Positions 2,918-12,438 of a DNA stretch of 64,000 nucleotides are shown here, one piece after another (within the stretch, counting starts at the first letter, position 1; each line of letters opens with the position of its first letter). A program made the position numbers and the translations under genes. The DNA is from Candidatus Aminicenantes bacterium (GTDB lineage Bacteria > Acidobacteriota > Aminicenantia > Aminicenantales > UBA8522). The notes under the pieces were generated by a model. The model saw only the letters and a list, made by a program, of their open reading frames with translations. It was not told the origin of the DNA and did not search any database. The stretch covers positions 6,185 through 70,184 of the forward strand of contig JBBILQ010000005.1 in assembly GCA_037444845.1 (NCBI GenBank), written 5' to 3'.

Positions 2918-4423
2918 TTACTTCAGGAAGTCTGGAGGGAAGGTTTTCGGGTCTCTGCCGAAAACCTTTTTATAAACCCGAGGAAAGCGGTCTTTCCCGC
3001 CCAGGAGCATCAGGCTCGAGGGCATCACTTCCCGGGCAACGTCCGCCATTTTCCCGACAATCCTCCGGATGTCCCACTGCGCCGTCGCGTCCTGGCGCAG
3101 CCGGGAAATGTGGTAGAGCTCTCGGATGTTAACCTTGAGGATCGCCCGCCGTCTGTGGGCATTGGTCAGGACATAATCGGCAGCCTCTCCGGCCTCCCTT
3201 TTCAACCGGGCATACGCATCGTTCGTTTGCTCGATGACGGCCAGGAATTCCCCGGCTGCGCCGATGTCCTCGACAGAAGGGGGAATCGTCACGCCGAGCT
3301 CGGGGTCATACCTCTGCCTTGTCAGGGTGGCCATGCGGTGGCGCTTGAGCTGGGCAAAACAGGCAGCGGAAACGATCAGCTCAAAAGTCAGGTCCGCGTG
3401 CTCGAACTCCCGCAACGGAAAATCATAAAACTCCATGTGCTCGAGAGAAGATCTGATGAACTCGCTTTTCTCCGCCTGAGACATGTCGCGGACTTGACCA
3501 TGGCAAAACTCATAAGAACGGGCAGATACGGTGTGGATGAGCGCGGCCAGGATGCGGTCATCGCCGTCGGCCGTGTAACCGACGAGGCGGACAGCCCGGC
3601 GGTCGTCAGCCGGCCGGCGAAGGCCTTCCTGCTCAGGCTGGGGGAGCCTCTTGGCTCGCTCTTCCAGGCCGGCGCAAGTCTTTGAGTCAAAGTCGCCGGG
3701 CTCTGTGAAAAGAATGATCGACGGCGCCACCTCTTTGGCCAGGGCATAGATTTTTGCGTTAAGCTCTCGAAGCTCGGCCAGCTTTTTGGCGGCGAAGCGC
3801 CGGATGAGGAGCTCAAGATTACGGGCGTTGATGGTCATGCCCGCCTGTCCCTTTGTAGCCAGGCTGACGGCATACCGGGCATCCTCCTTGGCCCAACCAT
3901 CGAGGACGGGGTGATTCTTTGTATTCTGGGCAATATCCCTGTGCTTATTAAAAACATAAGGCTTGAGCTTCTTGTAAAGGCTTTCGTAAAGAGCGTTTTG
4001 GGCCCTGACCATCCGAACAAAAACTTCCTCCAGGCCGCTCTGCCTGATCTCCTCCGGGATGACAAAATCATCTCCCAAAGTGATGTAGCGTTGGGACTTT
4101 TCAGTGAAGGAGCAGAGCCGGAACTTTTCCACCTCCTCGAGCGCCAGACGGCTGAGGCCGATGAGGTCGAAGTTAAAGACAGCGTGCTCGGCGACCGAGT
4201 GATGGCCCATCTTAAATATGATGGTCTGGTTGGACCGCCTGGCCTTCTCCACCTCCTGGCGGGCTGCGGCCCTGAGCTCATCGATGGGCCGGGGGTCCCG
4301 GGAAATGCGGGCGTAGGCGGCAGAAAGCGTCTCTGGCGTCACATCGTCCCGGGGCGGAGCATGCCGCTTGAGGTCGGCGATGACTTCGCTGTCGATATTG
4401 TATCCGGCGAGGATTACTCTCAC
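2918..4423 (-). CDS. Tandem two-domain flavin-dependent thymidylate synthase (ThyX/Thy1)-like protein
   Basis: 501 aa, roughly two 250-aa halves, each with an EHxxF(T/N)F block. The N-terminal half has EKSQRY but its RHR is replaced by FRL. The C-terminal half keeps RHR (LKRHRMATLTRQRY) but the serine position is Thr. GTG start. Confidence 0.7.
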   Translation of the reverse strand: MRVILAGYNIDSEVIADLKRHAPPRDDVTPETLSAAYARISRDPRPIDELRAAARQEVEKARRSNQTIIFKMGHHSVAEHAVFNFDLIGLSRLALEEVEKFRLCSFTEKSQRYITLGDDFVIPEEIRQSGLEEVFVRMVRAQNALYESLYKKLKPYVFNKHRDIAQNTKNHPVLDGWAKEDARYAVSLATKGQAGMTINARNLELLIRRFAAKKLAELRELNAKIYALAKEVAPSIILFTEPGDFDSKTCAGLEERAKRLPQPEQEGLRRPADDRRAVRLVGYTADGDDRILAALIHTVSARSYEFCHGQVRDMSQAEKSEFIRSSLEHMEFYDFPLREFEHADLTFELIVSAACFAQLKRHRMATLTRQRYDPELGVTIPPSVEDIGAAGEFLAVIEQTNDAYARLKREAGEAADYVLTNAHRRRAILKVNIRELYHISRLRQDATAQWDIRRIVGKMADVAREVMPSSLMLLGGKDRFPRVYKKVFGRDPKTFPPDFLK

Positions 4424-4542
4424 GGCTTTTTACGATAAGAGCAGGAAAAGAAAATGTCAACTCACCGCCCCTAACTCGCTTATCCTCTCTCATTGATGAA
4501 TTTCTTGAAGTCATGTATTGTGGTTGGTGAAAGGAGCGAGAC

Positions 4543-5061: not shown

Positions 5062-8956
<3,895 letters not shown>

Positions 8957-8967
<11 letters not shown>

Positions 8968-9826
8968 TTTCTCTTTCCTTCGGACGAAAATGGGCTTTGC
9001 CAGGGCTTTCGCCCTGAATTTTTCGGTAAACATGATGGACCTGGGAAAGACACTCAAAAAGCCCTTCTTCTTTCGGGGCTTCGGCTGTTCCCAGGACTAA
9101 AATCCCCAGGTTTTTCAGGGAAGAATGGAGCTTCCGGAACATCTTGCTTTGCCCGTCGGCCGTGAAAAAAATGAGCATGTTCCGGCAGGAAATCAGGTCG
9201 AACTTCCCAGGGGAGGCTTCCCGGATAAAGTCATGCTGTTTGAACCTAACCATTTTTCTAATTCGATCGATTATTCGAAAACGATCGCTGTTTAATTTCT
9301 TGCAAAATTCATGTTTGCATTTTGGCGGAATATTTTTCATTTCAGCTCGCCTGTACAAAGCCTTCTTGGCCAAAGCAAGGCTCTTTGTGCTAACATCCGT
9401 GGCCAGGATGGATATCTTCAGTCTCTTCTTTTTCTTTCGCCTGACAAGATCCAGGCTCATGGCCAGGGAATAGGCTTCCTGCCCCTGGGAACAGCCAACC
9501 GACCAGATGGCAAGCTGGCCTTTCCTTTTGGCCAAAACGTTGTCGATCAAACTGGGGAAGACTTCTTTCTCCAAGTAAGAAAAGACGGCCCGATCTCTGA
9601 AGAAATCTGTCACCATGATGAAAAGCGCGTCTAAGAATCTGTAGCTTTCCAAAGGGTTATTTTGGAGATAGGCGATATAGTCGGAGTAACTTTTGGAATT
9701 GGTCGCACTTAGCCTCAGCTCCAAGCGCCTTTTGAGTGTTGTCGGACGGTATTCATGAGCGCTAAAGCCTGTGATGGCCGCAATTTCAGCCAACACTCTG
9801 TCAAATGTCGTCTCAGTTTGAGACAT
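8957..9826 (-). CDS. cheR: Chemotaxis protein methyltransferase CheR
   Basis: 289 aa with the CheR N-terminal helical domain and the SAM-dependent methyltransferase fold (LAIWSVGCSQGQEAYSLAM). ATG with an AGGGGA ribosome-binding site. Confidence 0.85.
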
Positions 9827-9984: not shown

Positions 9985-11406
9985 TTAGCCCTTCATCACG
10001 CCGACGGGAACGACCCGGGCCACCAGACGGCCAATACCGACCTCATGGGAGACCCTGACAACCTCATCCACATCTTTGTACGCGGCTGAGGCCTCCTCAG
10101 CCACTCCCTTCCAGCTCGTTGACTGAAGCTCGATCCCTTTTTTCTGGAGCTCGTCCCTGATCTGCTCGCCGCGAAAACGGCGGAGGGCCTCATGCCGGCT
10201 CATCACCCTTCCAGCGCCGTGGGCCGTCGAACTGAAACTCAGGTCTTCTGCTTCTCTGGTTCCGACCAAAAGATAAGACGCTGTGCCCATGCTTCCAGGG
10301 ATAATAACAGGCTGGCCGTAAGCCCGGTAGGCCTCGGGGATCTCTGGCCGGCCCGGACCGAAGCTGCGCGTCGCGCCTTTCCTGTGAACGCAGACCTCTC
10401 GCTCTTGACCGTTGATCACGTGCTTTTCGACCTTGGCCACGTTGTGGCAAACATCGTAGACCTGTCTCATGCCCTTGGAGCTCCCCATGACCTTGGCAAA
10501 TACGTCCCGCACCCAGTGGGCGATCATCTGCCGATTTGTGAAAGCATAGTTAACCGCTCCGCACATCGATTTGTAGTACTGCTCTCCGAGCGGCGAGCGG
10601 ATGGGCGCGTTGATGAGCTCACGGTCCGGAAGCCCTTTGATCCCGAAGACATTTTCCATTTTCTCGATGTAATCGGAAGCCACCTGGTGTCCCAGCCCGC
10701 GACTCCCGCAATGGATCATCACGAGGATCTGACCTTCGGCTTCGATCCCAAAGGCCTTGGCGATCGCTTCGTCATAGATGTGCGCAACTTTCTGAATCTC
10801 AAGAAAATGATTGCCCGCTCCCAGCGTTCCCAGTTGGGGAACTCCCCTCTCCAGGGCACGCTCGGAGATGTGGCTGGGGTCAGCGTCTTTCATCCGTCCG
10901 CCCTCTTCAGTCATCAGCAGGTCTTCTCTCTCTCCGTAGCCGTTCTCCACGGCCCATTCCGCGCCTTTAATCAGGATTTCCTTCAAGACGCTCCGGCTGA
11001 GTTTCGTGATCCCGCCTTTCCCCACGCCGGCGGGAACTTCCTTGAAGATCTCGGTGAGCAGCTCTTTCCGCCTGTCAGCAACGTCTTTTTCGGTGTAATC
11101 CGTCCGCAGCAGCCTGACCCCGCAGTTGATGTCATAACCGACTCCTCCAGGCGAAATGATCCCTCTGTCCATGTCGAAAGCGGCCACGCCGCCGATCGGA
11201 AACCCGTAGCCCTGATGGGCGTCGGGCATGACATAGGACATCCGCTCAATCCCCGGCAGGCAGGCCACGTTTCTTGCCTGCTGAAGAGTCATGTCCCTCT
11301 TGACGCTCTCGAGGAGTTTAGCCGAAGCAAAGAGGACCGCGGGCACTCTCATATCGCCACGCTTGGGGATTTCCCAGACGAATTCATTTATTTGACGAAT
11401 CTCCAT
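9985..11406 (-). CDS. rtcB: RNA-splicing ligase RtcB
   Basis: 473 aa carrying the signature MPDAHQGYGFPIGGV, GYDINCG and AHGAGR motifs. GAGGTGAG ribosome-binding site. Confidence 0.9.
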   Translation of the reverse strand: MEIRQINEFVWEIPKRGDMRVPAVLFASAKLLESVKRDMTLQQARNVACLPGIERMSYVMPDAHQGYGFPIGGVAAFDMDRGIISPGGVGYDINCGVRLLRTDYTEKDVADRRKELLTEIFKEVPAGVGKGGITKLSRSVLKEILIKGAEWAVENGYGEREDLLMTEEGGRMKDADPSHISERALERGVPQLGTLGAGNHFLEIQKVAHIYDEAIAKAFGIEAEGQILVMIHCGSRGLGHQVASDYIEKMENVFGIKGLPDRELINAPIRSPLGEQYYKSMCGAVNYAFTNRQMIAHWVRDVFAKVMGSSKGMRQVYDVCHNVAKVEKHVINGQEREVCVHRKGATRSFGPGRPEIPEAYRAYGQPVIIPGSMGTASYLLVGTREAEDLSFSSTAHGAGRVMSRHEALRRFRGEQIRDELQKKGIELQSTSWKGVAEEASAAYKDVDEVVRVSHEVGIGRLVARVVPVGVMKG

Positions 11407-11415
11407 GGTCTCACC

Positions 11416-11844
11416 TCACATATCGACGACCACCTGGACGGTGACAGAGTCGGCTTGTTCAATTTTCATCTCGTTGTAGGTGACCGCCTTGACCTCGCCA
11501 TGAAGCCTGTGCTTGGACGGCTCGTCGTCGCCGACAAAGACCGCCCTGAGCCAGAAGCCACCTCCAGTTCCGGCCTTGATTCTCATCTCCTCCACAGAGG
11601 CCAGGAGAAACGACTGGGTCTCGAAAGCGTAAATGACCTCCTCCAAAAAGTGCAGGAGTAGCTGCTCGAGGTCTCGCCCCTCCACACAAACGCGGCGCTT
11701 GACCGTCCTGGCCACCGCACCCACGTCCCACATCAGGGAAGCTGTGGCCAGGGCAGCGTTCGAAAAAGCCTCTTCAAGCGTGCGGCCGAAAGCCTGGAAC
11801 TTGGCATCAGCCGTGTGGTTGAGAAAGCGATACTTTTTTTCCAT
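11416..11844 (-). CDS. Archease (RtcB activator)
   Basis: The internal ATG at 11844 gives MEKKYRFLNHTADAKFQAFG, the archease N-terminal signature, about 142 aa. It lies immediately upstream of rtcB. Confidence 0.8.
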   Translation of the reverse strand: MEKKYRFLNHTADAKFQAFGRTLEEAFSNAALATASLMWDVGAVARTVKRRVCVEGRDLEQLLLHFLEEVIYAFETQSFLLASVEEMRIKAGTGGGFWLRAVFVGDDEPSKHRLHGEVKAVTYNEMKIEQADSVTVQVVVDM

Positions 11845-12006
11845 TGAGCTCCAGCTCCAAAAAATTATCAAAGAGCCTCGAGGCTCGTTTTCCTTCGACT
11901 TGACTATTATTTTACCATGATAAAACCGGTACGCCAAATCAGCCGGGAGGCTGGATTTGACTTCCTTTTTAACCTGCATTAGCATAAGCGGCTTAAGCAC
12001 CGAGCC

Positions 12007-12438
12007 GTGGACCAAAGCAGCCAGCCATCTTCCCTTGTCTTCAACCTATCCAGGTCGAGTGCTTTCTCTTTCAAATGCCAGGTCTGTGGCGCTTGCTGCC
12101 ACAACAAAGCCATCCTGATCGACCCCTGCGAAGCCCTCCGCCTCGCTCGAAACTTCGGCTTGACGACAACAGAATTCTTACACGTCTATGTCGAAAAAGG
12201 AGGCCAGGTTCTTCGCCTCAAACCCGACGGAAGCTGTGTGTTCCTCAAGCCGGAAGGATGCGGCGTCCACGACGACCGGCCTCTTGTCTGCCGCCTCTTC
12301 CCTCTCGGCCAGATTATCGATAGAAATGGCCAGGAGCGTTTTGCTGTGATGCCGCTTCACCCGGATTGTCTCGGGCTTCTCGGCGAAGAGGGTACAGTCG
12401 ATACGTACCTGGAGTCACAAGGGATCGACTTCTATTGA
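12007..12438 (+). CDS. YkgJ-family Cys-cluster protein (putative Fe-S or Zn binding)
   Basis: CxxCxxCC motif (KCQVCGACC) plus downstream Cys residues. GTG start; the start site is uncertain. Confidence 0.55.
   Translation: MDQSSQPSSLVFNLSRSSAFSFKCQVCGACCHNKAILIDPCEALRLARNFGLTTTEFLHVYVEKGGQVLRLKPDGSCVFLKPEGCGVHDDRPLVCRLFPLGQIIDRNGQERFAVMPLHPDCLGLLGEEGTVDTYLESQGIDFY

Follow-up and report, generated by a model that had tools for sequence, protein, structure and literature searches.

The gene examined here lies on the minus strand of the window, by which we mean the whole 64,000-nucleotide stretch of DNA that was analyzed, and encodes a protein composed of two ThyX-like halves (Table 1). The open reading frame proposed for this position in a first-pass annotation is real, and homologues of 490–506 aa align end to end with the 501-aa window protein; the annotation had left out the strand, and the start codon is GTG. 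A promoter-like sequence ends 8 nt upstream of this codon, no obvious Shine–Dalgarno sequence precedes the thyX GTG start, and the thyX mRNA may be leaderless.

On one side, thyX is convergent with three plus-strand genes: purL, which is partial at the window edge, purN, and tyrS. Its neighbors on the other side are a rubrerythrin gene and a gene for a large hybrid sensor kinase. The kinase is a 1331-aa protein with four PAS domains, a GAF domain, HisKA and HATPase domains, and two receiver domains, and its gene lies directly downstream of a gene for a CheR-type methyltransferase. Farther along, a gene for an RtcB RNA ligase is followed by an archease gene, and RtcB was found near thyX in 16 of 80 related loci.

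The tyrS, purN, purL, and RtcB genes each recurred in 9–16 of the 80 related loci, only within an Aminicenantes-like subset, and none of the neighbors in these 80 loci was conserved across phyla. The first-pass annotation had taken the adjacency of purN, purL, and tyrS as consistent with a role in nucleotide metabolism. The genes do adjoin thyX, but they are weak evidence for function, with tyrS and purN on the opposite strand and the synteny restricted to 14–16 of the 80 loci, all within that subset, and the neighborhood says little about what thyX does. We found no thyA and no second thyX in the 64-kb window, a sample too small to show that this gene encodes the sole thymidylate synthase. 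In a published COG table, ThyX of whatever type is present in six of six Acidobacteria genomes and ThyA in zero of six.

Table 1. Coordinates of features in the window and of one assembly gap in a related locus. Mtb, M. tuberculosis; Tm, T. maritima.
Feature	Position	Strand	Basis or remark
Tandem ThyX coding sequence	2918–4423	minus	501 codons plus stop; GTG start at 4423
N-half Thy1 domain, residues 1–240	3704–4423	minus	PF02511 E 4.3e-34 for this half alone; aligned to Mtb and Tm ThyX
Inter-domain linker, residues 241–277	3593–3703	minus	Poorly conserved, length variable, gapped in alignment A1
C-half Thy1 domain, residues 278–501	2921–3592	minus	PF02511 E 2e-32 for this half alone; aligned to Mtb and Tm ThyX
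N-half G73-H74-H75-S76	4196–4207	minus	Corresponds to Mtb G68-H69-F70-S71 and Tm H53 and T55; third-subunit FAD contact
N-half motif K100-F101-R102-LCSFTEK-S110-Q-R112-Y113	4085–4126	minus	Alignment to Mtb and Tm ThyX; family conservation
C-half motif R361-H362-R363-MATLT-R369-Q-R371-Y372	3308–3343	minus	RHR intact; Ser and Arg positions unconserved in family
C-half R443-QDAT-A-Q449-W450	3074–3097	minus	R443 corresponds to Tm R174 and Mtb R199, the uracil-binding Arg
Promoter-like TTGACA-17 nt-TATCGT	4432–4460	minus	10 of 12 consensus matches; consensus match only
Hybrid sensor kinase gene	5062–9826	minus	
RtcB gene, then archease gene	9985–12015	minus	
10-N gap artefact, locus L081 of GCA_023228195.1	3751–3762 (in L081)		Linker region

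Domain architecture and predicted fold

The Pfam Thy1 profile (PF02511) matched two stretches of the 501-aa protein with an E value of 5.6e-66 and a score of 222 bits, compared to a cutoff of 24.8. When residues 1–250 were scanned alone, the match covered profile positions 8–191 of 191 (E 4.3e-34, 118 bits), and residues 271–501 scanned alone matched positions 1–191 of 191 (E 2e-32, 113 bits). The fusion of two Thy1-like halves read from the translation at first pass was thus confirmed as two full domains. The window protein also scored 130.5 bits against the NCBIfam thyX equivalog TIGR02170, for which the cutoff is 87.9, and both halves matched structures solved for the ThyX enzymes of M. tuberculosis, T. 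maritima, and H. pylori. Compared to each other, the N-half and C-half were 24.5% identical (blastp E 3e-6; hhalign probability 97.4%), values that point to halves that are homologous to each other but old.

AF2 models built from a shallow alignment had a pLDDT of 62, and those built from a diverse alignment (A2) had a pLDDT of 93.1 and a pTM of 0.91. A pTM this high means that the position of one domain relative to the other is predicted with confidence. In foldseek, the best PDB matches of the AF2 model were exclusively single-domain ThyX chains that aligned to one half or the other at a probability of 1.00, with TM-scores of 0.64–0.76 to the target (~0.74 per half) and 0.29–0.38 to the query. 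No two-domain ThyX structure was among the PDB matches listed.

Division of active-site residues between the halves

Three subunits build each active site of M. tuberculosis ThyX: R95, H96, and R97 of subunit A clamp FAD, and R95 and R199 contact dUMP; S71 and R190 of subunit B contact the FAD phosphates and ribityl; and R87, S105, and R107 of subunit C hold dUMP, with Y108 serving as a lid (PMC6514825, a review of FDTS structures). We aligned each half of the window protein, both singly and as family profiles, to M. tuberculosis ThyX and to T. maritima ThyX, for which the sequence used was identical to 1kq4 at 219 of 220 positions.

In the N-half, positions 1 and 2 of the RHR motif are degenerate (K100-F101), the third Arg is kept as R102, and S110-Q-R112-Y113 follows at canonical spacing. 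The N-half had been described at first pass as having lost RHR and kept the S-Q-R-Y segment, a description that holds, but in the alignment to M. tuberculosis ThyX the residues in place of RHR are KFR rather than FRL. In the C-half, RHR is intact and the loop that follows is shorter by two residues, so that the motif-Ser position falls at R369 by profile alignment or at R371 by strict x7 spacing. The earlier description of this half was likewise right about a kept RHR and a missing motif Ser, but the residue at that position is Arg and not Thr; T366 and T368 are nearby. A complete RHRx7S motif within one domain is therefore absent from both halves, with KFRx7S in the N-half and RHR without the Ser in the C-half.

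Across the two halves together, however, the full residue set of one three-subunit composite site is present, with the A-role residues in the C-half and the B-role and C-role residues in the N-half. The C-half residues with the FAD-holder role are Q358, R361, H362, R363, R443, and Q449-W450. Those of the N-half with dUMP-holder and third-subunit roles are H74, S76, R92, E108, S110, R112, Y113, R183, and R201. We take the subunit B His (T. maritima H53; H74 here) to contribute also to the FAD/folate side, and R183 is presumably the equivalent of the phosphate contact made by T. maritima R147.

We then scored conservation in a set of 136 sequences, consisting of the window protein and 135 full-length two-domain representatives that differ by more than 50%. 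In the N-half, H74, S76, E79, H80, R92, E96, R102, E108, S110, Q111, R112, Y113, R183, N199, and R201 were 95–100% conserved, with values of 96–100% for the dUMP-holding and third-subunit residues (R92, S110, R112, Y113, S76, and R201, together with H74). In the C-half, Q358, R361, H362, R363, R443, Q449, and W450 were 99–100% conserved. The degenerate positions were variable in the same set. N-half position 100 was H, K, R, or S in 24, 15, 15, and 14% of sequences, position 101 was H, F, or S in 27, 26, and 12%, and RHR occurred in the N-half of only three of the 136 representatives. C-half position 369 was P, A, or V in 32, 19, and 10%, position 371 was P or D in 35 and 21%, position 353 was Ala, the canonical residue was not conserved at any of these positions or at position 336, and none of the 136 representatives had both Ser and Arg at the C-half motif positions.

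By the alignments to the M. tuberculosis and T. maritima enzymes, only the C-half conserves the A-role set (R361–R363 and R443), and only the N-half conserves the C-role set (R92, S110, R112, and Y113), the B-role Ser (S76), R183, and H74. Two positions are less strictly divided: both halves retain a conserved B-role Arg (R201 in the N-half and R434 in the C-half), and N-half R209, which corresponds to the uracil-binding Arg, has remained Arg or Lys in 74% of members. Mean pairwise identity was 0.46 for the N-half, 0.36 for the C-half, and 0.12 for the linker, which ranges from 18 to 73 aa across the family. These sequence comparisons point clearly to purifying selection on both the N-half and the C-half, and they indicate that complementary motif loss is systematic across the family, excluding chance.

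Inteins interrupt the N-half of two homologues, P0182 (797 aa) and P0269 (795 aa), at points equivalent to the window residues L103/C104 and H74/H75, respectively. The two inteins are different. The one at L103/C104 lies within the segment containing the degenerate RHR and SxRY, and the other, right after G73-H74, carries a LAGLIDADG homing-endonuclease domain. Inteins typically sit in essential, conserved sites, and their presence at these active-site motifs fits the N-half motifs being functionally critical.

Predicted assembly and alternative readings

Canonical ThyX is a homotetramer of 220–260 aa subunits with four active sites; it binds FAD and depends on NADPH and CH2H4folate for its conversion of dUMP to dTMP. 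In a 222-symmetric tetramer, these sites are A(B,C), D(C,B), B(A,D), and C(D,A). From the division of residues described above, we think it probable that the window protein is a working ThyX/FDTS, converting dUMP to dTMP, that arose by an ancient duplication–fusion, with labor divided between the copies, and that forms a two-site pseudo-tetramer. In this proposal, an ancient tandem duplication and fusion of a ThyX subunit would have been followed by a division of labor in which the C-half took the FAD-holding (A) role and the N-half took the dUMP-holding (C) and third-subunit (B) roles. Two polypeptides would pair to give a pseudo-tetramer in which the C-halves occupy positions A and D and the N-halves occupy B and C. 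Two complete composite sites would result, each consisting of one C-half and two N-halves, and the other two sites would be unable to bind dUMP and would lack a conserved FAD clamp. Because each live site would need two different N-halves, the fusion protein would at least have to dimerize.

We predict dimeric assembly, two active sites, and catalytic activity by combining sequence with published geometry; both the quaternary structure and the interface chosen as intramolecular are inferred from 222 symmetry alone. The covalent pseudo-dimer with complementary motif loss and asymmetric sites envisaged in the first-pass annotation is supported by the conservation across 136 members and by the mapping of subunit roles from M. 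tuberculosis ThyX. Its alternative suggestion, that one half has been taken over for regulation, is unsupported in that form, as neither half is self-sufficient, but the degenerate site does carry newly conserved residues.

Those residues bear on what the second pair of sites might do. At positions of the supposedly dead site, R102 in the N-half was 100% conserved, and R338, Y372, Y417, and R434 in the C-half were 96, 98, 98, and 99% conserved, respectively; because conservation is this high, simple decay of a dead site does not fit. Two of these residues are new, with R338 replacing the B-role Ser and Y417 replacing the phosphate Arg. The degenerate site pair could thus have been repurposed, with the Arg/Tyr cluster lining a distinct conserved pocket for another ligand (e.g., NAD(P)H, a nucleotide effector, or folate), so that one site pair would be catalytic and the other would be regulatory or would dock a cofactor. 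In M. tuberculosis ThyX, NADP+ can take the place of FAD in its site (PMC6514825), which would be in keeping with such a pocket. The cluster residues could instead be structural or could reach the neighboring live site, as neighboring FADs in ThyX have their AMP moieties turned toward one another (PMC6514825), and we regard repurposing as unlikely. If it were true, ThyX would have a second site with a task of its own (e.g., the docking of NAD(P)H or nucleotide allostery), which is impossible in a symmetric homotetramer.

A different possibility is that the protein is a ThyX-like enzyme that acts on another substrate or catalyzes another reaction, for example as a PolB-type UMP C5-methylase or some other enzyme that modifies pyrimidines, rather than a housekeeping thymidylate synthase. 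ThyX-like paralogues with other substrates exist, the window protein is only ~22–25% identical to characterized ThyX enzymes, and 6j61, a PolB-type ThyX-like UMP C5-methylase, was among the PDB matches. This single-domain protein shares the Thy1 fold and weakly matched the C-half (E 0.037), but over the whole protein its E value was 0.0019, compared to 1.5e-8 for M. tuberculosis ThyX, placing the window protein closer in sequence to bona fide ThyX than to 6j61. Moreover, all of the residues that contact dUMP and FAD in the M. tuberculosis enzyme are present in trans and are 96–100% conserved, the TIGR02170 equivalog cutoff is passed, and the gene is single-copy, in a housekeeping context, in hundreds of genomes from many phyla. 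We therefore consider a different substrate quite improbable. It is more improbable still, and can be largely set aside, that one half is a decaying pseudo-domain while the other homo-oligomerizes alone, or that both halves are fully active in an enzyme with four sites: each half is still recognized as a complete Thy1 domain, but the N-half is without positions 1 and 2 of RHR, the C-half has neither the Ser and Arg residues for dUMP nor the His and Ser of the third subunit, and selection on both halves appears clearly to be purifying.

Distribution, comparison with known enzymes, and significance

A word-indexed search returned more than 5,000 relatives of the window protein, the best 120 of which were all ~500 aa, were covered over their full length, and were FAD-dependent thymidylate synthases wherever named. 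An exhaustive HMMER search of 50%-identity cluster representatives gave 447 clusters at E ≤ 1e-30, and the best 150 of these were almost all two-domain proteins of 460–570 aa. In a scan of one genome per species, we found tandem ThyX in at least 583 genomes, with carriers among the Aminicenantes, other Acidobacteriota, Omnitrophota, Syntrophales, Elusimicrobia, Margulisiibacteriota, WOR-1, and Auribacterota. A MAG labeled Nanoarchaeota was a further carrier. Uncultured bacteria thus carry tandem ThyX widely, and it is routinely given the annotation ThyX; the window gene is an ordinary member of a very large family. The closest named relatives place the window in an Aminicenantes-like MAG. No cultured isolate was among the named best 120 matches of a 'Terriglobales' homologue (P0068), all of which were Aminicenantes-type or Acidobacteriota MAGs.

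Close relatives, up to 88% identical, occurred in MAGs labeled Clostridiales, Eubacteriales, and Planctomycetia (L001 and several other loci). These labels look unreliable, as the nearest named kin are Aminicenantes or Omnitrophota. An apparent split version of the tandem protein, with adjacent genes for Thy1 proteins of 250 and 253 aa, was rejected, as a 10-N scaffold gap lies in the linker (Table 1). Neither tandem ThyX nor the complementary split was described in the open-access literature that we searched, and a fixed division of active-site labor between fused halves is apparently an undescribed variant of a known enzyme.

Canonical ThyX enzymes (T. maritima TM0449, M. tuberculosis Rv2754c, and the H. 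pylori enzyme; EC 2.1.1.148) have the Thy1 fold in common with the window protein and share its catalytic residues: RHR, the Ser/Arg/Tyr set, the Arg that contacts uracil, and the His and Ser contributed by the third subunit. The chemistry and the geometry of a site built by three subunits are presumed to be alike as well. The window protein differs in consisting of two fused, diverged copies rather than one 220–260 aa subunit, and its predicted assembly is a homodimer with two FAD and two sites, whereas canonical ThyX is a homotetramer with four. A precedent for the logic of the split comes from H. pylori ThyX, for which Leduc et al. in 2004 reportedly found that inactive mutants complement between subunits, the site being shared between monomers. 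There, too, subunits that lack different residues jointly rebuild a site, but that case involves laboratory point mutants in separate chains, whereas tandem ThyX is natural, fixed by fusion, and conserved across phyla.

Chlamydial ThyX may be of the same tandem type, which would show that such proteins are active thymidylate synthases. C. trachomatis ThyX (CT632), which is said to have been characterized biochemically by Griffin et al. in 2005, is ~529 aa, roughly twice the normal size of ThyX. The chlamydial protein has been called too divergent for ThyX phylogenies. Chlamydial sequences were absent from the best 120 matches of each of three homologue searches, and a search for chlamydial ThyX by cluster look-ups and in the scan that found the at least 583 genomes returned only MAG-derived proteins.

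ThyX is a target for antibacterial drugs. Its active site, shared by three subunits, has been hard to dissect. The natural fusion offers evolutionary information on the subunit from which each residue acts, and it provides a system in which each role could be mutated separately, without subunit mixing. For annotators, it means that thousands of genuine ThyX proteins will fail a check for the RHRx7S motif in either half. The split leaves the presumed function of the enzyme unchanged, and tandem ThyX is a variant of a known enzyme and nothing new in kind. The fusion predicts only half as many sites as usual, and if chlamydial ThyX is of the tandem type, this asymmetry would be relevant to inhibitor design.
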